Of a stretch of DNA of 64,000 nucleotides, positions 15,570-30,367 are shown in pieces; the first letter of the stretch is position 1; every line of letters starts with the position of its first letter. This DNA comes from Candidatus Latescibacterota bacterium (GTDB taxonomy: Bacteria; Latescibacterota; UBA2968; UBA8231): NCBI GenBank assembly GCA_965248265.1, contig CBDFJF010000001.1, forward strand, positions 2,016,001 through 2,080,000, read 5' to 3'. The notes beneath the pieces were generated by a model. That model ran no database searches. It saw nothing but the letters and a program-made list of their open reading frames with translations, and was not told where the DNA came from. Position numbers and translations under genes: made by a program.

Positions 15570-15841
15570 AACGAGACCGACCACCAGACCTGCCAGAATA
15601 GCCTGCCAAAACCGACGTCGGAAATTCCTTCACCCGGTTTCGGAAACTTTTTCCCTTAGCTGAATGACGATTCGCGATAGCCCGACCCGCTTGCGCAACA
15701 TGTAGCGCAGTTACCGTTGGCGAGGGCAATATGAAGCGATCGATCCCAAGAAAACACATGTAGTACTACGTGCGTTTTCTTCATTGTTAGAAAATTTTAA
15801 CTAATTGTTAATACATATCTTACGCTTGGTATCACGAACTT

Positions 15842-15856
15842 TGGCACAGCCGTTGC
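15842..15856 (+). promoter_or_regulatory. sigma54 (-24/-12) promoter
   Basis: TGGCACAGCCGTTGC is an exact TGGCAC-N5-TTGC consensus match, preceded by an AT-rich tract at 15780-15830. Confidence 0.8.
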
Positions 15857-15867
15857 GATACGAGGGC

Positions 15868-15975
15868 CAGACCAAACACTCCTCTGTTTGTTTGGGATCC
15901 GAAGGCAAGAACTCCCCTTCTGGTCTGTCTGTCTCTCCTCGCGCAGATGGAGCCTTCGGATCCCAGCTCTTTTCC
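15868..15975 (+). ncRNA. Candidate structured small RNA or leader with three anti-SD loops
   Basis: Hairpins caaaca-CTCCTC-tgtttg, agaa-CTCCCC-ttct and tctgtctg-tctCTCCTCgcg-cagatgga; 14-bp closing stem tgggatccgaaggc/gccttcggatccca followed by ctctttt; begins about 12 nt after the sigma54 -12 box. Confidence 0.65.
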
Positions 15976-16009
15976 CTGAGCAAAAAGACTAACCAGGACA
16001 GGAGCTGAT

Positions 16010-16225
16010 ATGATGGGACGTTCGGCAGGACACCTACGTAGCAGGCCACGGATGTACGTGATCGTGTTCATCACGTGTGCCATGCTCGCGCTCGTGCTTC
16101 AGTGGCTCGTTTCGGCGACCGGTGATCTGAGTACGTACGCAGATCGGAGAATCCAGTCTGCCGTGGATGAAGCAGTGCAATCGCAGGTGACGGAGGCTTC
16201 CAGGAACCTCGATCGCGGTAGATGA
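16010..16225 (+). CDS. Small hypothetical single-pass membrane protein
   Basis: AGGAG RBS near 16000; hydrophobic YVIVFITCAMLALVLQWLVSA. Confidence 0.55.
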   Translation: MMGRSAGHLRSRPRMYVIVFITCAMLALVLQWLVSATGDLSTYADRRIQSAVDEAVQSQVTEASRNLDRGR

Positions 16226-16538: not shown

Positions 16539-17156
16539 TCAGTCACCCGCACGCCAGGGCGTGAACAGGTCATGCTCGATGTGCAGGAGGTTCAATACCC
16601 GTCCGGCGATGAAGTCGCCGAGATCATCGAAGGAGGTTGGCTTTTGATAAAACGCCGGCATGGCCGGCACCACCGATGCGCCGGCTTCGGCCACCGTCGT
16701 CAAGTTGCGCAGCTGGATTAGATTCAGCGGCGTTTCACGGGGCACGATTACCAGCGGCCGGCGTTCCTTTAGGGAAACGTCGGCTGAACGCTCGATCAGA
16801 TTGGTCGAGGATCCGTTGGCGATCCCGGCCAGGGTCTTGGTGGAGCATGGGATTACGACCATGCCGTCGGTGCGGACGGAACCGCTGGCCACGGCGCAGG
16901 TCAGGTCGTTCAGGCCCAGTTCAACCAGCGTACCGGCTGAAATCTCGTCGCCGTACAATCGTTGTAGAAAACCAGTGATCGTTTCCTTGTCGGGCAGCCA
17001 CCCCATCTCTTCGACGAGCAGGTAGCGTCCGTACTTGGAGAGGATCAGATCCACGGAGTGTCCCCCTCGCAGCAAGGCGCGCAGGAGTCTTGTCGCGTAC
17101 ACGGCGCCGCTGGCACCGGTAACGGCGACGATGACTTTCTTGCCCTGTGCCATCAA
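16539..17156 (-). CDS. ubiX: Flavin prenyltransferase
   Basis: VTGASGA, ASGS, PCS, RSADVSLKERRPL, PRETP, PAFY. Confidence 0.92.
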   Translation of the reverse strand: MMAQGKKVIVAVTGASGAVYATRLLRALLRGGHSVDLILSKYGRYLLVEEMGWLPDKETITGFLQRLYGDEISAGTLVELGLNDLTCAVASGSVRTDGMVVIPCSTKTLAGIANGSSTNLIERSADVSLKERRPLVIVPRETPLNLIQLRNLTTVAEAGASVVPAMPAFYQKPTSFDDLGDFIAGRVLNLLHIEHDLFTPWRAGD

Positions 17157-17167
17157 CCTCTCCCTAC

Positions 17168-19138
17168 CTACTCCCGTTGGCCACGCGCGGTGGCCAGGGC
17201 TTCAATAATCCCGTCGACATCGTAGACGCAGCCACCCCACGTCCCACCACCGACATCCTGCAACGCCGCCCACAATCGAGTGTCATCGGGAAGTGCATCC
17301 TCCTCGGCCAGGTCCGATCGAAGCTCCCTTTCGGACAAGCGGCGTTCGCCTTCACTCGCTCCGAACTCCTCTTCGTCATGCCCGACCAGATCGACGCTGC
17401 CTCGCAGATTCACGGTATCGACGACGATCTCGATGATATCACCCTCCTGCAGCTTTCCCAATGGCCCACCCGCCAGAGCCTCCGGACCTATGTGCCCGAT
17501 ACAAGCCCCGGTAGAAACGCCGGAAAAGCGGGCATCCGTCAGTACCGCGACATACTTACCCCAATCGACATTTTTCAGAGCAATTGTCACCTGGGCAATC
17601 TCTTCCATGCCGCTGCCCATGGGACCGCAACTGAGCAGAACCAGCACGTCTCCAGGCTCGAGTTGCTTGCCCTTGATCGCGGCCATGGCATGTCGCTCAG
17701 AGGTAAAAATGCGCGCCGGACCACGCAGACGGTAAACACCTTGTTCGTCGAGCACACTCGGATCGATTGCCGTGCTCTTCACCACCGAGCCTTCTGGAGC
17801 CAGATTGCCCTTCGGAAAGCTGACGGTGCTGGTCAGGCCCCGTTCCCGGGCACGGCCTGGCGACATCACGACATCATCGGGATCCACGCCATCATGCTCC
17901 GATAGGAGTTCTCGAAACCTGCCGCGACGCTCCGAAGCCGCCCACCAGTCCAGGTTTTCGCCAAGACTGCTGCCCGTCACCGTCATGGCTTTCTCCTCGA
18001 GCAGACCCAGAGCCCGCAGGTGTAGCATGACTTCGGGAACGCCACCGGCCAGAAAGGCCCTCACCGTCGGATGAAAAGCGGGCCCGTTGGGCAGCACATC
18101 GACAATGCGGGGAACCAGCCGGTTGATGCGATCCCAGTCCTCGACCGTCGGCCGCCGACGTCCCGCCGCATAGGCAATTGCCGGTATGTGTAAGATCAGA
18201 TTGGTGGAACCGCCGAAAGCTGCGTGGACGACCATGGCATTGTGTAGGGCCGCGTCGGTGATGATGTCCTGTGAGGTGATGCCTTCGGCTTCCTGGCGCA
18301 CCAGGGCTCGGCCGGTACGGGCAGCCATCTCCAGCCACACAGATTCACCGGAGGGTGCCAGCGCCGAGTGGGGCAACGACAATCCGAGGGCCTCGCCGAC
18401 GACCTGCGAAGTGGCCGCCGTGCCCAGAAACTGACAGCCGCCGCCAGCCGTAGCGCAGGCCCGGCAACCCAGGTCGTTGACCTCATCGATCGTCATCTCG
18501 CCGTGAGCGAGTCGTGTGCCCACCGACTGGATGGTGCCCGCGTCCTCACCGCGAATGGGAGGCAGAGTAACGCCCCCTGGAACCACGGCCACCGGCAGCT
18601 GATGAATCCCGGCCAGAGCCAGCATCATGGCCGGCAGCCCCTTGTCGCAGGTGGCTACTCCCAATACCCCGCGCCGCGTCGGCAAGGAGCGGATCAACCG
18701 GCGCAACACGATCGCTGCATCGTTGCGGTAGGGCAGGCTGTCGAACATCCCCGTCGTGCCCTGGGTGCGCCCGTCACACGGATCGGAGCAGTAACCGGCA
18801 AAGGGAATCCCACCCTGACGGCGAATCTCCACTGCCGCCGCCTGCATCAGCAGGCCGACTTCCCAGTGCCCGGTGTGGTAGCCGAGAGCCACGGGCGAGC
18901 CATCGGGAGCACGAATGCCTCCCATCGTGCTGAGAATGAGGAACTCCTTGCGTCCCAATTCAGCCGGGTTCCACCCCATGCCAGCATTCTGGCTGTAAGC
19001 GAAAATGTCCCCGCTGGGGGAATTGATGACCTGATCTATTTGCAGAGGAAGCTTGCCACTGGGACCCTCGGCTTTAGTGCGTAGCTGGTAGACCGAGTCG
19101 TCATCCTTGACGAGGTCGTGGAAGGTTATGTTATCCAT
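17168..19138 (-). CDS. YjhG/YagF-type sugar-acid (D-xylonate) dehydratase, IlvD/Edd family
   Basis: [56 protein letters not shown]. Confidence 0.88.
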
Positions 19139-19147
19139 CCGTCTTTG

Positions 19148-20044
19148 CTAGTTGAACTGGAGGGCCAGTTGGTCACCTAACACCAGCAGATCCGCCAGCG
19201 TGAACCCGAAGTAGAGAACGCTGACGACACTATTCATGGTCATGAAGGCCATGTTGACCCTGGTCAGGTCATCCGGTCGCACCAGATAATGCTCATACAC
19301 CAGTAGACCGGCGATGATGACGATGCCAGCCAGGTAGATACCATTGAGCGCTGCGATGTAGCCGACAGCCGCCATCGCGACGATGGCAAGACCGTGAAAG
19401 AAACGGGCGCATAACAGCGCACCCTTGAGGCCAAAACGGACCGGAATCGAGTGCAGTCCGGTCCGCGTGTCGAACTCATAATCCTGGCAGGCATATAGGA
19501 TATCGAAGCCGGCAACCCAGGCGAGTACGGCCACACCGAGAACGACTGGCGCCAACGAGAACCCACCGGTAACTGCGATCCAGGCGCCGAGGGGGGCCAG
19601 TCCAATACTCAATCCCAGCATCACGTGCGAAAGCCAGGTAAAACGCTTGGTGAGCGAATAGAGTAAGACGACCCCCAGAGCCACCGGCGACAGGTACAGG
19701 CAGAGCGTGTTCAATTGGCCAGCGGCGTACACGAGAACGGCCGCTGAAACAAGCACGAAGGTCAACACAGCACGCACGGAGACCAGACCGGTCGGCAGTT
19801 CGCGGGCGCTCGTCCTGGGATTGGCCGCGTCGATGAAACGATCTGCGATGCGATTAAACCCCATAGCGGCGCTGCGGGCACTGACCATGGCGACGATGAT
19901 CCAGGCGATCTGGCTCACCGTTATGCCGTTGACGCTGGCAGCCAATGCCGCCCCGCTGAGGGCGAACGGCAGTGCGAACACACTGTGCGAAAACTTGATC
20001 ATGCGTCCGTAAATGGTGACCGGACGCAGTGGATTCATCGCCAT
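19148..20044 (-). CDS. UbiA-family polyprenyltransferase (MqnP type)
   Basis: IKFSHSVFALPFA, NRIADRFIDAANPRT, YSLTKRFT, DILYACQD; futalosine operon context. Confidence 0.9.
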   Translation of the reverse strand: MAMNPLRPVTIYGRMIKFSHSVFALPFALSGAALAASVNGITVSQIAWIIVAMVSARSAAMGFNRIADRFIDAANPRTSARELPTGLVSVRAVLTFVLVSAAVLVYAAGQLNTLCLYLSPVALGVVLLYSLTKRFTWLSHVMLGLSIGLAPLGAWIAVTGGFSLAPVVLGVAVLAWVAGFDILYACQDYEFDTRTGLHSIPVRFGLKGALLCARFFHGLAIVAMAAVGYIAALNGIYLAGIVIIAGLLVYEHYLVRPDDLTRVNMAFMTMNSVVSVLYFGFTLADLLVLGDQLALQFN

Positions 20045-20073
20045 CGCTCTACCTTCATTCGCTCACTGCGCAT

Positions 20074-20913
20074 TCATTCACCGCGCTCGTAAAACCGCAA
20101 TTCGGGAATGCTGTCGATCATATTGTGGGCGGCGGCCAGCTGGTAAAACTCTTTCAACCCACTCACCGCTGGCGGCCCCAGATCGTATTGGATGTGATCG
20201 CGAAGATAGCGTTCGTAGAGCTCGCTTGAGCCCGCGCGTTGTCGCTGAAAGTCGACTGCGATGTCGGCGTAGAGAGCTTCCCCCGCTCGCTTTGCAGCGA
20301 TCAAACGCTTGACTTCTGCCGGCTCCAATGCGGCTTCCCGTCCTGCCCAGAAAGCGAATACGAACGCATGACCGGTAAGGTCGAGCCATTCCTGACCCAG
20401 GTCCAGACTACGCCGGTCCGATTGGGCTTCTTCCTCTACCAAAGGCAATACGGGATCCCCTATCAATAGCGCCGCGTCCGCCTGGTGAAGCATGGCGTCT
20501 AGATCAGGTGCCGCGTCATGTAAGACGGGATCCAACCCGTACTTCTCTCTCAATACGATCTGCAGCAGGCCTATCGATGTCTGCGAACTGCGATCGGCGG
20601 CGACGGTGCGAATGCGTTCCAGGGACCCGCGGTAGAAGAGGCGCACGGTGAGCACTTTCCCATTACAACCTATGGCCACATCGGGAACAACGTGGTAACA
20701 GATGTCGCTGGATCCGTACGCGATCGCCGGGATCAGCCCCACGTCGATCCGGCCGGCCGCAAGTTCGGTGCTGCACGCGGAAGGAACGTGGTATGAAAGC
20801 TCAAAGTCGCGACCGAGTCCGCGAACACCATCGCCAGTTAGGGTCGCTGTCAGAGGGCGGGCATTGAGATAACTCACCGCGCCCAGGCGAACCGGAGTGC
20901 GGGGAGCGCTCAC
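20074..20913 (-). CDS. mqnA: Chorismate dehydratase
   Basis: VSYLNARPL, SQTS, ALLIGD, DLGQEW, FVFAFW. Confidence 0.88.
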   Translation of the reverse strand: MSAPRTPVRLGAVSYLNARPLTATLTGDGVRGLGRDFELSYHVPSACSTELAAGRIDVGLIPAIAYGSSDICYHVVPDVAIGCNGKVLTVRLFYRGSLERIRTVAADRSSQTSIGLLQIVLREKYGLDPVLHDAAPDLDAMLHQADAALLIGDPVLPLVEEEAQSDRRSLDLGQEWLDLTGHAFVFAFWAGREAALEPAEVKRLIAAKRAGEALYADIAVDFQRQRAGSSELYERYLRDHIQYDLGPPAVSGLKEFYQLAAAHNMIDSIPELRFYERGE

Positions 20914-22046
20914 GAAGCCTTATTGAGGGCCTGCAACCGTGGACGCGTGGCCACGAGATCGTAGCGGGTGTTGCGCCGCTTCGGCTCGTACCCCGCGTCC
21001 TTGATCAGGCGCTCCATCGCCTCGAGATCCATCTCGTTGGTGTGGCTGGTTCCGGCGGCGCTGACGACGTTCTCCTCGAGCATGGTGCTGCCGAAATCAT
21101 TGATGCCGTAGCGCAGACTGACCTGGGCGATGCGCGGACCCTGCGTTACCCAGGAGGCTTGCAGGCTATCGATGTTGTCGAAGAAGAGGCGGGCGACTGC
21201 AACCGTGCGCAGGTGATCGAAGCCAGTTGCCTTGAAGCCGTGCCAACGCTCGGCGTCGGCGCCCAGGTCAGTGGACTCGGGTTGGAAATTCCACGTGATG
21301 AAAGCGGTAAAGCCTCCAGTCTCATCCTGCAGGTCTCTCAGCAACGCCATGTGTTCCAGGCGATGATCGACCGACTCCACATGACCATACATCATCGTCG
21401 CCGTCGTCCGCATCCCCAGACCATGAGCAACCCGATGCACCTCCAACCACTCCGCCGTGCGGTCTTTGCGAAAACCGATAACATCACGCACCTCGTCATT
21501 GAGGATCTCCGCGCCAGCTCCGGGAATGGAATCCAGTCCAGCCACCTGCAGACGAGTGATGGTTTCTTCAAGCGACAGGCGTGACAGATGGGCGATATAG
21601 ATGATCTCGGTTGCCGATAGGCAGTGCAGTTGGACCATCGGGTAGCGTTGCGCGATCTGTCCGAGCAGGTCTTCGTAGTAATCCAGACGCAGCTTCGGGT
21701 TGAGCCCGCCCTGCATCAGTATCTCGCACGATTTGGGCTCATCACCGCCAAAGGCCACGAGTTCGTCGATCTTGGCGAACACCTCCTCGTGAGGCAGCAC
21801 GTAACCTTCCTCCGACCCCGGTGCCCGGTAGAAGGCACAAAAATCACACTTCACCCAGCACACGTTCGTGTAGTTGATGTTGCGCCCGACGTTGTAGGTA
21901 ACGATCTGATTGTCGTGGCGCCGGTGACGCACCCAGTGCGCCAGCATGCCCAGCTCTGCGAGGTTCGGATGCGCCAACAGACGCCTGGCATCCTCGACCT
22001 CAAGGCGCACCCCGCCGTAGACCTTCTGGGCAATATCGTCGATCAC
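20910..22046 (-). CDS. mqnC: Cyclic dehypoxanthinyl futalosine synthase (radical SAM)
   Basis: NINYTNVCWVKCDFCAF, LMQGG, FTAFITW, QASWVTQG, GSTMLEENVV. Confidence 0.9.
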   Translation of the reverse strand: MIDDIAQKVYGGVRLEVEDARRLLAHPNLAELGMLAHWVRHRRHDNQIVTYNVGRNINYTNVCWVKCDFCAFYRAPGSEEGYVLPHEEVFAKIDELVAFGGDEPKSCEILMQGGLNPKLRLDYYEDLLGQIAQRYPMVQLHCLSATEIIYIAHLSRLSLEETITRLQVAGLDSIPGAGAEILNDEVRDVIGFRKDRTAEWLEVHRVAHGLGMRTTATMMYGHVESVDHRLEHMALLRDLQDETGGFTAFITWNFQPESTDLGADAERWHGFKATGFDHLRTVAVARLFFDNIDSLQASWVTQGPRIAQVSLRYGINDFGSTMLEENVVSAAGTSHTNEMDLEAMERLIKDAGYEPKRRNTRYDLVATRPRLQALNKAS

Positions 22047-23197
22047 CCCGCCGCTTCTCCCGTCATTTCCATGTCAGGGACGATGTTGTAAAGGCTGTCA
22101 CGCTCCACCGGCTTGCGCCCAGCTTCCACGATGCGATCGAGAAGTTGTTGTTGTGTCAGTCGCTGCTGGGTTTCCTCGAAGCTTTGCCGGGTAATCTCGT
22201 AGTCCATGATGGTGCCATCGATGTCGTTGGCGCCGTACCACAGGGCAACCTGCGAGATCTCTATCGTGTTCATGATCCAGAACGTCTTGACGTGCGGAAA
22301 GTTGTCCAGCATCAGGCGACCGATGGCGATCTCTTTCAGATCCAGCGCCCCGGTTGGTCCGGGTAGATGATCAATCTCCGTCCGCTCGGGATGGAAGGAG
22401 AGTGGGATGTAAGCCAGGAATCCGCCGGTTTCGTCCTGTACCTCGCGGAGCCGCGTCAGGTGATAGACCTTCTCTTCCTTGTTCTCGACGTGACCGTACA
22501 GCATCGTCGCGTTCGTGAGCAGGCCCGCCTTGTGTGCGGTGGCGGCGATGCGCAGCCAGTCATCCGAATCACCCTTGGTCCAGAACAGGGTCTCGTGAAC
22601 GCGCTCGCTGAAGACCTCCGCGCCACCACCGGGCAACGACTCAAGTCCGGCCTCCTTCAGATCAGCCAACACCTCCTCCAGCGGCTTTTTGGCGACTCGC
22701 TGTATCTGCGCCAGCTCGATCATCGTGAACGCCTTCAGATGCGCCGCCGGCCGCGCCTCCTTCATCGCCTGCAGGACCTCGAGGTAGTAGGAGTACGGCA
22801 GTTTGGGATTGACGCCCCCCACCATGTGGATTTCCGTGATCGGAGCATCCCCATACTCGAGGACGCGCTGTTGCACTTGTCGCGGTGTCAGCACGTAGCC
22901 CCGCTCGTCCTTCGGCTTTACATAGAAGGAGCAGAACTTGCAGAGCTTGTTGCAGACGTTGGTGTAGTTGATGTGTTGATTGCGCACATAATAGGTGGTG
23001 TCGCCATGCAGCTGCTCGCGCACCCGATTGGCGAGGTAGGCGAGCGCCGGCAGGTCGGGGGATGCGTAGAGGCGCAACCCATCGTCGGCATTGAGACGCT
23101 CGTTGGCGCGAATCTTGGCCTCGATGTCGGCGAGGCCAGCTCGCGCAATCTCCTGCTCAAAAATGGCGCTGCGATTGTCGCGTACGGAAGTTGGCAT
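22043..23197 (-). CDS. mqnE: Aminofutalosine synthase (radical SAM)
   Basis: HINYTNVCNKLCKFCSF, EIHMVGG, PGGGAE, NFPHVKTFWIM, PVERDSLY. Confidence 0.9.
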   Translation of the reverse strand: MPTSVRDNRSAIFEQEIARAGLADIEAKIRANERLNADDGLRLYASPDLPALAYLANRVREQLHGDTTYYVRNQHINYTNVCNKLCKFCSFYVKPKDERGYVLTPRQVQQRVLEYGDAPITEIHMVGGVNPKLPYSYYLEVLQAMKEARPAAHLKAFTMIELAQIQRVAKKPLEEVLADLKEAGLESLPGGGAEVFSERVHETLFWTKGDSDDWLRIAATAHKAGLLTNATMLYGHVENKEEKVYHLTRLREVQDETGGFLAYIPLSFHPERTEIDHLPGPTGALDLKEIAIGRLMLDNFPHVKTFWIMNTIEISQVALWYGANDIDGTIMDYEITRQSFEETQQRLTQQQLLDRIVEAGRKPVERDSLYNIVPDMEMTGEAAG

Positions 23198-23253
23198 GGA
23201 TGAGGTTGGCTTGGATCAGGTGGAGAAGAACATAGGCAAGGCCTCTGCGGTCC

Positions 23254-24069
23254 TCAATTCGCTTTGTGACCCTGGTACACGGCGCAGATGCCGAGAGTCA
23301 ACGAGGTCATCCTCTCTCTATCGAAACCGGCATCCCGCATCAGCCGAAGAAAGCCGTCGGGCTGTGGAAAAGCGGCAACCGATTCAGGCAGGTACGCGTA
23401 GGCCTGACGGTTCCCTGAAATGATACCGCCCAGAACCGGAAGTATGTGCTTGAAATAGAATCGATACAGCTGGCTGAATACGGGAGCGGTAGGCTCGGTA
23501 AACTCGAGTATTACCAGCTCTCCACCCGGTTTGAGGACTCTCCGGGCCTGTGCTAAGCCCACCGAGACATCTCCGAAGTTGCGGACCCCGAAGGCCGCGG
23601 TAACCAGGTCAAAACTGTCGTCGGCGAATGGCAAGCTCTCAGCATCCGCACACAGCAGTGTCATGGGAATCTCTGGAGTTCCAGCCACAGCCGCTGCGCC
23701 AATGTCGGCCGCGACCTGACTCGACCCGTTCGCGCGCGATCCGAGTTTGCTCGACCCGAGTCGTAGCATGTTGAGAGCAACATCAGCACCGACCACGCGC
23801 CGTGGTTTAAGACGCCTCGCGGCTATGGCGAAGTCACCAGTGCCCGTGGCGAGATCCAGCACGCGTGCAGGGCGCTCACCACGGACCAGAGAAAGGGCAC
23901 GACGGCGCCAGTAGAGATCGATACCGGCGCTCAACAAGTGGTTGAGCAGATCGTATCGGGAGGCGATGGCGTTGAACATTCCCTGAACACGTCGTTTGCG
24001 TTCGTGTATCGCATCCTCCGACTCACGGCCTTGCCAGGCATTCAATGCCGACCTGCGCCCATCTGTCAA
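23254..24069 (-). CDS. menG: Demethylmenaquinone methyltransferase (UbiE/MenG)
   Basis: MFNAIASRYDLLNHLLS, LDLATGTGD, AFGVRN, AYAYLPESV. Confidence 0.9.
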   Translation of the reverse strand: MTDGRRSALNAWQGRESEDAIHERKRRVQGMFNAIASRYDLLNHLLSAGIDLYWRRRALSLVRGERPARVLDLATGTGDFAIAARRLKPRRVVGADVALNMLRLGSSKLGSRANGSSQVAADIGAAAVAGTPEIPMTLLCADAESLPFADDSFDLVTAAFGVRNFGDVSVGLAQARRVLKPGGELVILEFTEPTAPVFSQLYRFYFKHILPVLGGIISGNRQAYAYLPESVAAFPQPDGFLRLMRDAGFDRERMTSLTLGICAVYQGHKAN

Positions 24070-24173: not shown

Positions 24174-25562
24174 ATGGCTGAATCTGATACCCCCCTTCCC
24201 CGCATCCTGGTCTGCGACGTCGACGACGACGTCCTGGGGTGCATAGCTGCCAGCATCGACGACTCGTCTGTCGATATCGAAGAGGCCGCAGACCGAGAGG
24301 ATTGCCTCGAGCGGCTCGGGCGCCGGGAGTTCGATCTCGTCCTCGTGGACCTGACGGCGGACGGAGAATCCGGCCTCGGATTGCTCGAACAGATTCGCGA
24401 TCGTTTTTCCGAAACACTGGCCATCGCCCTGTCCGGCGCCGCGACCGGCCAGGAGACGGCGGAAACGGCACTGGCCCGGGGGGCCTACGATTTCTTCTCG
24501 CAGCCGACTGACTTAACACGGCTGCGCTGGGTGGTGGATAGAGCCCTGGAGCGTGTTCGGCTGTCGCGAGCCAACCGCGACCTTCGACACCAGCTCGGGC
24601 AACGCAGCGACGATTCCACCACATTTCGCCGGATCGTGCGCTTGAGTCCGGCGATGGAGGCGGTCACCCGCACCGTCAAGCAGGTGGCGCTGACGGATGT
24701 CCCGATCCTGCTTCGCGGAGAAACCGGGGTTGGCAAGGAGCTCACTGCACGCACGATACACGAACGCAGTAAGAGATCGAATGGACCTTTTGTCGCCGTG
24801 AACTGCGGCGGGTTCACGGAGGATCTGTTCTCCTCGGAGCTGTTCGGCCATGTCAGGGGTGCTTTCACCGGAGCCCACGCCGATCGCCCTGGCCGCTTTG
24901 CCATAGCGGAAGCCGGCACCCTGTTTCTCGACGAAATCGGCGAGGTTCCGTTGAAGAACCAGGTTGAGCTGCTGCGTGCTTTGGAATCGAGGGAGTACCA
25001 ACCGCTGGGTGATACACAGGTTCATCAGGCCGATGTGCGTATCATCGCCGCCACCAACCGGGATCTCGAAGCCAGTGTTCAGAGGGGCACCTTCCGCGAC
25101 GATCTGTACTACCGCCTCAACGTGGTACCCATCGACGTCCCGCCTCTGCGGGCCCGCCAAAGTGACATCCCGGTTTTGATCGAGACCTTTCTCGAGGAGG
25201 CCTGTCGCGCCTACGACCAGCCGCTGAAGCGGGTAGACGCCGACACCATGGAAAGCCTCATCCACCATCCATGGCCTGGCAATGTCCGGGAATTGCGCAA
25301 CCTAATCCAACGACTCGTCGTCACCACTCCTGGACCATCGATCCTTCCGCGCCACCTCGACGAGATCTTGGACAATAGCGGCAACAATGATGGAGAGCGG
25401 CACTTCGATGTCGCCGTAGGCTCCACCATAGAAGATGTCGAGGCGGAGTTGATCCGGCAGACCCTGCAGCGGGTCACCTCCAACAGACGGGATGCTGCCT
25501 CGATTCTCGGAATAAGCGTGCGGTCGCTTCAATACAAGTTGAAGAAGTACAAGATCAGGTAG
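24174..25562 (+). CDS. sigma54-dependent response regulator (REC-AAA+-Fis HTH; NtrC/AtoC family)
   Basis: GETGVGKE, SELFGHVRGAFTGA, LFLDEIGE, WPGNVRELRN, C-terminal HTH; N-terminal receiver domain somewhat degenerate. Confidence 0.92.
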   Translation: MAESDTPLPRILVCDVDDDVLGCIAASIDDSSVDIEEAADREDCLERLGRREFDLVLVDLTADGESGLGLLEQIRDRFSETLAIALSGAATGQETAETALARGAYDFFSQPTDLTRLRWVVDRALERVRLSRANRDLRHQLGQRSDDSTTFRRIVRLSPAMEAVTRTVKQVALTDVPILLRGETGVGKELTARTIHERSKRSNGPFVAVNCGGFTEDLFSSELFGHVRGAFTGAHADRPGRFAIAEAGTLFLDEIGEVPLKNQVELLRALESREYQPLGDTQVHQADVRIIAATNRDLEASVQRGTFRDDLYYRLNVVPIDVPPLRARQSDIPVLIETFLEEACRAYDQPLKRVDADTMESLIHHPWPGNVRELRNLIQRLVVTTPGPSILPRHLDEILDNSGNNDGERHFDVAVGSTIEDVEAELIRQTLQRVTSNRRDAASILGISVRSLQYKLKKYKIR

Positions 25563-25631: not shown

Positions 25632-26051
25632 GTGCAATAATTGCACTTTGGTGATATTACTCACACAACTGAGTTGATCCCACCGCGAAGTAATTTCTTA
25701 TATATAATTTATAAACAACAAGTTATAGTCATTTTATATGCGGTCGGTACCATATTTGCATATACCAGTGCGCGAGGAACCAATGCCGGGGTTGTTGGAA
25801 CCCCCAGCAGTAGTGGGAAAAGCTGGTAAGTGAAGATGTGATATCAACTTATCACGCTAATGGAAACGCCGCACGGTTATACGATTGCGGCGCTTCCGGT
25901 TCGACCAGTGATGCCGCCGATCGTGTTTGATGCAATATTTGCATGCTGCGTTCGGCCTGTTCAAAGCACCTACGTAAGCGGTAAAATGGCAAGTTAGGAA
26001 AGATGTCGAAATTGTCGCTCTGATCTGGCAATTTGGCATGCAATATTTGCA
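25632..26051. promoter_or_regulatory. Three palindromic TGCAA-N3-TTGCA boxes (candidate activator sites)
   Basis: GTGCAATAATTGCAC 25632-25646; ATGCAATATTTGCAT 25930-25944; TGCAATATTTGCA 26039-26051. Confidence 0.65.
25745..25760 (+). promoter_or_regulatory. Candidate sigma54 promoter with an upstream IHF-like site
   Basis: CGGTACCATATTTGCA has GG-N10-GC spacing; AACAACAAGTTA lies in the AT-rich tract near 25714-25725. Confidence 0.55.
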
Positions 26052-26124
26052 CAGTCGCGCGGCCGATACCAAATCAACCGTGCGCCACAGCGGAGATCAG
26101 AGACCACGCAAGACAAGGAGAGAG

Positions 26125-26997
26125 ATGGCTTACTCCATTCAGAACGTCCTGAGAGAGGATGAGAGCACCCTGAGGCGGTATTTCGATGACATCGCGGATT
26201 CCACACCGCTTTCGCGGGAGATGGAAGTGGCGCTTTCTGAGCGCATCCACAAAGGCGATCAGGACGCTCGGGATGAACTGGTCCAGGCCAATCTGCGGTT
26301 CGTCATTGACGTGGCCAAGAATTATCAGAACCGGGGGTTGTCTCTCACCGATCTGATCAGCTCGGGCAACGTCGGCCTCATGACCGCGGCAGAGCGATTC
26401 GACGGGACCAAGGGGTACAAGTTCATCTCCTACGCGGTATGGTGGATCAAGCAGTCGATCCTGCAGAGCATCGCCGATCATGCCCGCACCGTCAGGCTTC
26501 CCCTGAACAAGCTGAGCCTGCTCAAGGACATCACCAAGGCTTCGCGCAAACTGGGTCAGGGCCGCGAGAGTGAGCCGAGAGTGGAGGAAATTGCCGAGCA
26601 CCTCGAGATCTCCTCACAGGAAGTCCTCGATACCATGCTCAGCGCCCGCAGCATCCGATCGTTGGACGAGGAGTTCGAGGAGGGCGACGAACGCAGCCTG
26701 ATGAACACACTGGCTGACGATCGTCAGGATACGCCGGACGTAGACGTGATCGAGTCCTCCGCCAAAAACCATCTCGAGAGCATCCTGCGCTGCCTCGACG
26801 AACGCGAACTCTACATCATCCGCCTGTATTTCGGTCTCGACGGCACCGAGGCATTGACGCTGGAGCAGATCGGCGGACTCATGAACCTGACTAGGGAGCG
26901 GGTCCGTCAGCTCAAGGAGCGAGCACTCGGAAAACTGCGCTCTCCCGAGCGCTATCAAGCCCTGCAAGCCCTGTGTGACGAAACCGAGGTCTTCTAG
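26125..26997 (+). CDS. RpoD/SigA-family sigma70 factor lacking region 1.1
   Basis: ANLRFVIDVAKNYQNRG, GYKFISYAVWWIKQ, LTRERVRQLKE; AAGGAG RBS before ATG 26125. Confidence 0.92.
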   Translation: MAYSIQNVLREDESTLRRYFDDIADSTPLSREMEVALSERIHKGDQDARDELVQANLRFVIDVAKNYQNRGLSLTDLISSGNVGLMTAAERFDGTKGYKFISYAVWWIKQSILQSIADHARTVRLPLNKLSLLKDITKASRKLGQGRESEPRVEEIAEHLEISSQEVLDTMLSARSIRSLDEEFEEGDERSLMNTLADDRQDTPDVDVIESSAKNHLESILRCLDERELYIIRLYFGLDGTEALTLEQIGGLMNLTRERVRQLKERALGKLRSPERYQALQALCDETEVF

Positions 26998-28834: not shown

Positions 28835-30367
28835 ATGAAAGAGCGATCTGATCGACAGGTAATGATCCTGCTCCACGAAATTGGGGAGGTGCTGGGATCT
28901 GCCGCCAGTTTTGAGGAGGCGGTGCAGAAAATTCTCAAGCTGCTGTGTGAACGGGCAGAAATGGATCGGGGCACTCTCAGTCTTGCAGAAGACGACAGTG
29001 AAGTCGCCATCGACATCGCCTACGGTCTCTCCAAATCGGAGATACGTCGTGGCCGTTACAAAATCGGCGAAGGCATCACCGGACGAGTGGTTGAATCGGG
29101 AAAACCGGTCATTGTCCCCAGAATCAGCAGCGAACCGCTGTTCCTCGACCGCACGGGATCGCGGGGGAAAACGGAAAAATCGGAAACCTCCTTCGTCTGC
29201 GTCCCAATCCTGCTGCAGAGCAATGTCGTTGGCACACTGAGCGCCGACCCCCCATACATCGACGACGCCGGGCTGCAATCGAATGTTCGCCTGCTGTCCA
29301 TCATCGCGGCCATGATCGCTCAAAATGTCGCTTCCCGGCGGCGCGCCCGCGCCGAGCGCGCCAGCCTGATAGACGAGAACCAGCGTCTCCAGAGCGAGCT
29401 GAAGGAGCGCTTCCACCCGTCAAACATCGTCGGCACTTCAAGGCCGATGCAAGAAGTCAGCGACCTCATCGTCAAGGTCGCAAGCAGTGACGCCACCGTG
29501 TTACTGCGGGGTGAAAGCGGCACCGGAAAGGAACTGGTGGCTGACGCTTTGCATTACGGCAGCCTTCGGGCTCGTAAACCGTTGGTCAAGGTGCATGTGG
29601 CTGCGTTGCCGGAATCACTCGTCGAGAGCGAGTTGTTCGGCCACGAGCGGGGCGCCTTTACAGGCGCTACCGAAGCCAAGGCGGGACGCTTCGAACGCGC
29701 CGAAGGCGGAACCATCTTCCTCGACGAAATCGGCGAACTGGCACCCTCGGTACAGGTGAAACTCCTGCGGGTGGTACAGGCGCGCCAGGTCGAACGTCTC
29801 GGAGGATCCTCGCCGATACAGATCGACGTGCGCATCATCGCCGCCACCCATGTGGATCTGGAACAGGCAGTTGTGGACGGCACCTTCAGAGAGGATCTGT
29901 TCTACCGCCTCGATGTGTTTCCGATCTTCGTACCGCCCCTGCGAGAGCGTAAATCCGACATCCTCTTGCTGGCAGACACCTTTCTCGAGAAATACGGGCG
30001 CAAACACACCAAAGAGATGCGACGCATATCCACCCCCGCCATCGACATGTTGATGAGCTATCACTGGCCAGGAAACGTGCGCGAACTGGAGAACTGCATC
30101 GAACGCGCCGTCATCCTGTCCACGGACGGCGTCGTCCACGGACACCACCTGCCACCGACGCTTCAGACGGCGACTTCGTCAGACACCTCCCTGTCAGGGA
30201 GCCTGGAGACGATGATGGGTGCCTACGAAACGGAGATCCTCGCCGAGGCCCTGAAGAGTTCGCGCGGCAACATGGCCAAAGCAGCCCGACTGCTTGGGAC
30301 AACCCAGCGCATCTTCTCTTATCGTAGCCGCAAGCTGGGAATACACTCCAAGCAGTATCGAGCCTAG
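28835..30367 (+). CDS. NifA-like GAF-AAA+-HTH sigma54 activator
   Basis: GAF segment RGRYKIGEGITGRVV and SFVCVPI; GESGTGKE; ESELFGHERGAFTGA; LLGTTQRIFSYR. Confidence 0.9.
   Translation: MKERSDRQVMILLHEIGEVLGSAASFEEAVQKILKLLCERAEMDRGTLSLAEDDSEVAIDIAYGLSKSEIRRGRYKIGEGITGRVVESGKPVIVPRISSEPLFLDRTGSRGKTEKSETSFVCVPILLQSNVVGTLSADPPYIDDAGLQSNVRLLSIIAAMIAQNVASRRRARAERASLIDENQRLQSELKERFHPSNIVGTSRPMQEVSDLIVKVASSDATVLLRGESGTGKELVADALHYGSLRARKPLVKVHVAALPESLVESELFGHERGAFTGATEAKAGRFERAEGGTIFLDEIGELAPSVQVKLLRVVQARQVERLGGSSPIQIDVRIIAATHVDLEQAVVDGTFREDLFYRLDVFPIFVPPLRERKSDILLLADTFLEKYGRKHTKEMRRISTPAIDMLMSYHWPGNVRELENCIERAVILSTDGVVHGHHLPPTLQTATSSDTSLSGSLETMMGAYETEILAEALKSSRGNMAKAARLLGTTQRIFSYRSRKLGIHSKQYRA

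Follow-up and report, generated by a model that had tools for sequence, protein, structure and literature searches.

The window analysed here, a stretch of 64,000 nucleotides from the genome of an uncultured Candidatus Latescibacterota bacterium, contains a perfect sigma-54-type promoter box followed by a short sequence able to fold into several hairpins. This raises the question of whether the sequence is an RNA gene in its own right and, if so, upon what the RNA would act. A sequence-only reading had proposed an unannotated small RNA (sRNA) whose loops, complementary to Shine-Dalgarno (SD) sequences, would pair in trans with ribosome-binding sites or, alternatively, a cis leader controlling the AGGAG ribosome-binding site before the open reading frame (ORF) that follows.

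Fold and boundaries of the element

Direct reading of the window places the hexamer TGGCAC at 15842-15847 and, five bases further, TTGC at 15853-15856, so that the perfect TGGCAC-N5-TTGC box reported earlier is indeed found at 15842-15856. Downstream of it, the segments 15893-15906 and 15952-15965 are exact reverse complements over 14 bp. RNAfold, applied to the plus strand of 15866-15978, yields a structure of -41.5 kcal/mol (z = -3.84) that none of 200 shuffled sequences matched in stability, and recovers the three hairpins, the 14-bp closing stem, the CU-rich loops and the short U-tract described by the sequence-only reading (Table 1). The minus strand of the region folds worse, with a z of -1.66 and 14 of 200 shuffles performing equally well.

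We infer that the element is transcribed, with a start near 15868, placed by the usual spacing after the GC of the -12 element, and an end placed by the U-run. Following the closing stem, the RNA tail reads AGCUCUUUUCC. Among the 30 homologous loci, the U-run attains 8-10 U in L017, L021 and L031, compared with 4 U in the window, and is weak or absent in L016, L019, L023, L027 and L040. With its branched stem and only 4 U in the window, the 3' end is atypical as a terminator; a consensus terminator scan found no intrinsic terminator at the RNA end, because the closing stem encloses two hairpins. A small ORF inside the RNA was also considered and discarded, since its ATG, which falls within the 3' strand of the hairpin-3 stem, reads ACG in L002 and L003, and the ORF lengths after it differ.

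With regard to environmental reads, a marine oligo-dT RNA run (X22, kept as contigs, share 0.11) provides one 151-nt contig of depth 3 over 15859-15975, which shows no start, end or strand, could derive from DNA carry-over, and was counted neither for nor against transcription. This contig overruns the interval by 9 nt on its upstream side, into the -12 region, and by 25 nt on its downstream side, and other contigs of the same run cover both strands of the next ORF. Two marine DNA runs (X5 and X6) gave contigs over ~15714-15986 only, at a likeness of at least 85%.

Table 1. Features of the RNA locus and of its surroundings in the window, with one divergent homologue from a related genome (last line). 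Paired-cell values refer to the alignment of 30 sequences.
Feature	Position	Strand	Basis and remarks
Hairpin and T-run, resembling the terminator of the upstream gene	15620-15655		MAFFT alignment of 30 upstream regions
Box B, CACA-N3-TGTG-like dyad in relatives	15694..15707	+	~-168 from predicted start; MAFFT alignment
Box C	15726..15748	+	~-131 from predicted start; ~30-35 nt from boxes B and D; MAFFT alignment
Box D, palindrome: A-run, two CAYRTG-like hexamers 4 nt apart, T-run	15750..15778	.	Centre at ~-104
A+T-rich spacer, box D to promoter	15779..15838	.	A+T-rich in most loci; genome 60% G+C
Sigma-54-type promoter, -24 TGGCAC / -12 TTGC	15842..15856	+	Direct reading; 30 aligned loci
Predicted small RNA, ~108 nt	15868..15975	+	Fold, matches of covariance model R1, covariation, strand-specific G-U pairs
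Hairpin 1, variable 5' module, loop CUCCUC 15879-15884	15873-15878/15885-15890 (15873..15890)	+	RNAfold
Conserved 3' core, closing stem around hairpins 2 and 3	15892..15966	+	RNAfold; 30-sequence alignment
Closing stem, 15 bp here (13-15 bp)	15892-15906/15952-15966	+	RNAfold; 99.2% of cells paired, 7/13 pairs changed on both sides
Hairpin 2, loop CUCCCC 15912-15917	15908-15911/15918-15921	+	RNAfold; inside closing stem; 55% of cells paired, 4/4 pairs changed on both sides in few cells, poorly supported
Hairpin 3, loop CUCUCCUCGC 15933-15942	15924-15932/15943-15951	+	RNAfold; inside closing stem; 97.4% of cells paired, 5/8 pairs changed on both sides
U-rich tail, terminator-like	15967..15976	+	Direct reading; 3' of closing stem
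orf71, 71 aa, hydrophobic stretch	16010-16225		AGGAG at 16001-16005; no Pfam match
orf63, 63 aa	16285-16476		No Pfam match
Menaquinone-type (futalosine-type) operon	16539-24069	-	UbiX-like flavoprotein, ILVD/EDD-like dehydratase, UbiA prenyltransferase, MqnA-like, two radical-SAM MqnC/E-like, UbiE methyltransferase
REC-AAA-HTH enhancer-binding protein gene	24174-25562
Sigma-70-family factor gene	26038-26997		Between the two enhancer-binding protein genes
GAF-AAA-HTH enhancer-binding protein gene	28835-30367
Divergent homologue in genome G017	L077:2246-2260 (promoter box) and ~125 nt downstream	minus strand of locus	Locus and promoter comparison

Distribution, covariation and variants of the RNA

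The element is single-copy in its own genome. BLASTN retrieved it from 11 of 24 genomes of the same family, and from none of 16 genomes belonging to other families of the class. A first covariance model (R1), built from 12 sequences and describing an 86-nt core, detected the element in 38 of 76 family genomes, always as a single copy, and thereby in 16 of 18 genera. When searched at the class level, R1 matched 37/75 genomes of family f1, none in f2 (0/31) or f4 (0/22) and, weakly, a single genome of f3 (G026, E = 7e-5). A second model (R2), built from 30 sequences, found the element in 35 of the 63 f1 genomes sampled and in none of 87 genomes sampled from 13 other families of the phylum. An exact-pattern scan covering one genome per species for 185,579 species returned 32 loci, among which 23 were confirmed by the model with the same bit scores as the family matches; these carry the depositor labels Ca. 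Latescibacterota (11), Gemmatimonadota or its sub-taxa (8), Ca. Handelsmanbacteria (1) and uncultured bacterium (3). The nine others (Lachnospiraceae, Bosea and others) lack a model match and were set aside as chance matches. The window, like 11 homologous loci, contains no match to an Rfam 15 family at or above the gathering score, and a permissive Rfam scan gave chance-level matches only, in agreement with the earlier suggestion of an unannotated RNA belonging to a new family.

When 12 sequences were aligned with MAFFT without regard to structure, RNAalifold retrieved the closing stem together with hairpin 3, with 8 of 21 pairs changing on both sides, and the CTCCTC of the hairpin-3 loop is invariant. 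In the alignment of 30 sequences, which was fitted to the covariance model and is thus somewhat biased towards it, 91.8% of the cells are paired and 16 of 25 pairs show changes on both sides. None of 500 shuffles reached these values, and sliding the alignment by 1-3 columns left only 32-51% of the cells paired. The helices contain frequent G-U pairs that are compatible with the plus strand only. Several pairs of hairpin 3 and of the closing stem are identical in 28-29 of the 29 distinct sequences, despite neighbouring pairs that covary. The fold, the CU-rich loops and the promoter, which the sequence-only reading had described from one genome, are conserved across genera, with covariation in the closing stem and hairpin 3.

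The number of CU-rich hairpin loops varies from one to three per RNA in the minimum free energy (MFE) folds of all 30 full RNAs. The hairpin 1 module is missing in L016 and L019, and in L028 and L039 it takes the form of a GNRA-like hairpin whose loop is not rich in C and U. In genus g13, the 5' module is replaced by an extension of ~90 nt containing a second copy of the hairpin-3 module, including its stem and CUCCUC loop. The RNA of these g13 loci (L030-L034) measures ~200 nt, its promoter lies 135-138 nt 5' of the core, and the 5' copy of hairpin 3 is a near-copy. A divergent homologue in genome G017 was missed by both covariance models, and shares its promoter box and locus with the others; its RNA consists of three tandem G+C-rich hairpins with the loops ACCUCCC, UCCCC and CUCCC. 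G017 thus keeps the loop motif in a different architecture, and the motif therefore outlives the architecture. In this genome, CAYRTG-like repeats are found directly upstream of the promoter, as opposed to ~75-95 nt away elsewhere.

Absence of the RNA is frequent in genus g14, where 27 of 31 species have no R1 match. In two genomes of this genus (G061 and G063; loci L076 and L078), the RNA is absent at the syntenic locus, the rsmF-like gene abuts ubiX, and the GH113 gene is likewise missing. Here, the RNA appears to have been lost together with its upstream region as one block, or the two were never gained, and loss of the RNA seems to be tolerated within the family. As judged by this comparison, the element is a real, previously undescribed RNA gene family in one family of uncultured aquatic bacteria. 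The 30-sequence alignment, with its covarying structure, represents a ready seed for a new RNA family model and for the annotation of metagenomes.

Promoter, upstream boxes and neighbouring genes

The sigma-54 promoter proposed by the sequence-only reading finds support in both the relatives and the genome itself. The signature GG-N10-GC is kept in 30/30 loci, and the exact box in 26 of them, while the flanks diverge; the four remaining boxes differ by a single change in the -24 hexamer (GGGCAC or TGGTAC). The distance from promoter to modelled core is 28-50 nt in most loci, and 105-138 nt in L023, g7 and g13. The genome harbours one rpoN gene (Sigma54_DBD match, 211 bits) and 29 strong genes for enhancer-binding proteins (EBPs; Sigma54_activat matches, E <= 4e-46). 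Strict boxes amount to 35 in the 7.3-Mb genome, versus ~17 expected from its composition, and the promoter box alone is not beyond chance. It rises above chance because it is conserved at the same place in relatives and because 26 of the 35 strict boxes are intergenic, intergenic DNA making up ~10% of the genome according to crude gene calls. Most of these 26 boxes lie 35-250 nt 5' of a gene, and the intergenic enrichment leads to the conclusion that the sigma-54 consensus is in real use in this genome.

Elsewhere in the genome, near-identical sigma-54 promoter regions occur in pairs (C2:1383589 with C2:3922272, and C1:198319 with C2:1951090), and represent duplications of a promoter or a gene. 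For three strict boxes (C1:2777626, C1:1862775 and C2:3922272), no gene was called in the 3 kb that follow, and these boxes may belong to small genes or to additional RNAs.

Four conserved blocks 5' of the promoter emerged when the 30 upstream regions were aligned with MAFFT. Box D, alignable in 27 of the 30 loci and absent from three loci of genus g16, stands out in a whole-genome scan with its position weight matrix, the site in the window scoring 29.5 bits and the next-best 19.2 bits, and is hence unique in the 7.3 Mb. We propose it as a candidate EBP site. Box B would be either an activator site or a -35-like element, a function is proposed for box C from its conservation as a block, and the A+T-rich spacer is possibly a bending or IHF-type region. 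Alternatively, boxes B and C may form a pair of -35-like (TTGnnn) and -10-like elements 18 nt apart, and box D may be a weak RNA hairpin with a T-run rather than a protein site, in which case the region would contain a tiny upstream transcript or a second promoter.

Two EBP genes are located in the window itself, and were rejected as linked activators, since their orthologues lie 8-14 kb away in four RNA-bearing genomes but also in the RNA-less G061. In five complete relatives, one of them RNA-less, both genes occupy the same place, 8-14 kb away from the ubiX locus.

The upstream neighbours of the RNA are genes for an RsmB/F-type methyltransferase and a GH113 glycosidase, together with a 159-codon ORF, and the menaquinone-type operon, on the opposite strand downstream, converges on the RNA. 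The ubiX gene is convergent to the RNA in 28/30 loci; in 14/30, its end is located 13-130 nt beyond the modelled RNA core. The AGGAG ribosome-binding site noticed earlier downstream of the RNA is present at 16001-16005, followed by the ATG of orf71 at 16010. If the RNA were a cis-acting leader or attenuator of orf71 and orf63, transcription would read through past the weak U-run, and the 5' part would control this AGGAG site. The window itself has features that suit such a role: the RNA is followed by orf71 at a distance of 35 nt, the U-run is limited to 4 U, and a fold of 15868-16045 pairs the tail AGCUCUUUU with the AGGAGCU of the orf71 ribosome-binding site. Homologues of orf63 also occur 3' of the RNA in 7/30 loci, but this is a small fraction, orf71 was detected in only 2/30, and a conserved co-directional downstream gene is absent. 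In the 14 loci with a nearby ubiX end, no room is left for a regulated gene, and the RNA and its promoter are conserved even there. The proximity of the convergent ubiX and the rarity of orf71 and orf63 therefore imply that, in the majority of the family, the RNA does not function as a leader, and the cis alternative of the sequence-only reading becomes very unlikely. The element is, in other words, independent of its neighbouring genes.

The invariable location of the element between convergent transcription units and its closing stem, which constitutes a long G+C-rich inverted repeat, could also be read at the level of DNA, as a mere terminator or insulator separating the rsmF/GH113 and menaquinone (ubiX) units, the RNA being functionless. 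However, invariant loop sequences are needless in a terminator, and a dedicated, conserved sigma-54 promoter is positioned immediately 5' of the element. Moreover, the G-U pairs suit an RNA of the plus strand only, and the minus-strand fold is no better than that of many shuffles. We regard a purely terminating or insulating role as extremely improbable.

Mode of action and relation to known small RNAs

The translation signals of this bacterium correspond to the loops of the RNA. Its 16S rRNA 3' tail carries the canonical anti-SD sequence, and GGAGG/AGGAG are most frequent between -14 and -11 relative to start codons. Of 5,895 first starts, 30.8% are preceded by a 4-mer SD core, versus 11.8% of 71,637 internal ATG/GTG codons. 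The loop motif CUCCU(C) is complementary to AGGAG/GAGGAG, and the latter rank among the most frequent SD hexamers of the genome. A search for Hfq found no gene in the genome.

Our preferred reading, to which we assign a probability of roughly one half, is that of an Hfq-independent, trans-acting sRNA that masks SD sites, an analogue and not a homologue of NfeR1/cuckoo, placed under a GlmY/Qrr-like promoter. An independent gene would thus produce a small RNA of ~108 nt from the sigma-54 promoter, upon activation by an EBP bound at the conserved upstream boxes, the clearest of which is the palindrome near -104 predicted as its site. The long closing stem would serve both as a terminator-like hairpin and as a scaffold displaying two to four pyrimidine-rich loops (CUCCUC, CUCCCC). 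In trans, and without Hfq, these loops would base-pair with a group of mRNAs at their ribosome-binding sites, leading to a block of their translation. The RNA would then probably switch off the translation of other genes.

With regard to the putative targets, the three loop segments were compared by RNAduplex with the region -35..+15 of 5,897 gene starts, relying on rough gene calls and start choices, and no separation from internal control windows was obtained. The duplex energies at starts and in random internal windows were -20.8 and -20.3 kcal/mol, respectively, at the 1% quantile, and -17.9 and -17.3 kcal/mol at the 5% quantile. Nor did any gene close to the RNA stand out as a target. The invariant six-base seed matches ~314 of 5,897 gene starts, a count made with a start choice that favoured SD-bearing starts, and such a seed gives little specificity. 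Also weighing against the preferred reading are the atypical terminator, the stem pairs that never vary and the tolerated loss of the RNA in genus g14. The trans-acting anti-SD sRNA of the sequence-only reading is thus partly supported, namely as regards the new family, its conserved promoter, fold and loops, and its independence from neighbours; the trans mode of action fits best, and the duplex scan did not bring out targets.

The outcome of the target scan and the lack of a detected Hfq would suit a decoy or ribonucleoprotein RNA, whose pyrimidine-rich hairpins bind an RNA-binding protein, the RNA titrating or delivering it like CsrB/RsmZ or CrcZ. Conceivable partners are proteins of the KH or RRM type, or a factor whose usual ligand is the 16S 3' tail. 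The pairs of hairpin 3 and of the closing stem that are invariant in 28-29/29 sequences while their neighbours covary, and the duplication of the complete hairpin-3 module (stem and loop) in genus g13, hint at a recognition of shape plus sequence, as by a protein. However, known protein-sponge RNAs carry more binding loops than the one to three CU-rich loops per RNA of the MFE folds, and the G017 variant differs in both stems and architecture while retaining the loop motif, an indication that function resides in the loop sequence. No candidate protein gene is linked to the locus. A csrA gene is present in the genome, but the pyrimidine-rich loops are devoid of GGA, which argues against CsrA as the partner; an sRNA sequestering CsrA/RsmA was ruled out on this ground. 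Overall, we consider a protein-binding function unlikely, without being far-fetched.

A bolder variant of the anti-SD reading, which we put forward as a rather improbable speculation, would be a circuit of one regulator and one RNA. Through the genome-unique activator site, an RNA mimicking the 16S anti-SD tail two to four times would be produced as a global brake on the few hundred genes led by GAGGAG/AGGAG in an Hfq-less uncultured lineage, and its conserved stems would also recruit a protein partner or a processing nuclease.

For this uncultured family, with its records under the labels Ca. Latescibacterota or Gemmatimonadota, no candidate riboregulator would have been defined before the present RNA; among the best literature matches listed, there was no paper on small RNAs in Ca. 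Latescibacterota/Gemmatimonadota, which is a weak negative. The RNA would further represent a separate instance, reached by convergence, of a design already described in Alphaproteobacteria and Firmicutes, namely, several anti-SD loops on one small RNA, and the combination of this design with sigma-54/enhancer control outside Proteobacteria.

The alphaproteobacterial NfeR1/alpha-r14 RNA ('cuckoo', CcsR) is reported to display an anti-SD loop on each of its three hairpins; these loops act redundantly, and repression occurs independently of Hfq by occlusion of ribosome-binding sites (PMC10746234). In the same paper, the stems diverge and the motif is kept, the 9-nt CCUCCUCCC being identical in three tandem hairpins, and the promoter is presented without a sigma-54 signature (PMC10746234). 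Both RNAs share the design of a same pyrimidine-rich anti-SD motif repeated in several hairpin loops. They differ in the motif itself, which is here CUCCUC/CUCCCC in loops of 6-10 nt instead of the 9-nt sequence, and in the architecture, with two hairpins nested in a long closing stem (Y-shaped) instead of a tandem arrangement. Furthermore, the present RNA has a sigma-54-type promoter, belongs to another phylum, and shows no sequence or model similarity to NfeR1/alpha-r14 (no Rfam match).

In Firmicutes, RsaE/RoxS and LhrC also pair with SD sequences via unpaired C-rich motifs, which are of the UCCC type in this phylum. The same is reported for RsaA and the class of C-rich-motif sRNAs to which it is assigned (PMC3961350). 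All these RNAs (RsaA, RsaE/RoxS and LhrC) differ from the present one in their motif, folds, phylum and control by sigma-B or two-component systems, and no model match relates them to it.

GlmY/GlmZ and Qrr resemble the element in that their sRNA genes are driven by a -24/-12 promoter, and are not homologous to it (no Rfam model match). The Qrr sRNAs are LuxO-dependent, and GlmY acts by protein mimicry and not via anti-SD loops. At the glmY sigma-54 promoter, three conserved sites for the activator GlrR are reported upstream, together with IHF (PMC3045617), an arrangement similar to the layout of boxes B, C and D and the A+T-rich spacer. CJnc230 (CJnc230/FlmE) of Campylobacter is reported as an RpoN-dependent RNA with a putative anti-SD stretch, for which SD masking has been proposed (PMC11187230). 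As described there, it differs by being processed from the flgE mRNA and by its one single-stranded CCUU stretch, and it is not homologous (no Rfam match). Homologous to neither, as far as sequences and models can tell, the present RNA joins two known themes, that of multi-loop anti-SD sRNAs and that of sRNA genes driven by sigma-54 and EBPs.
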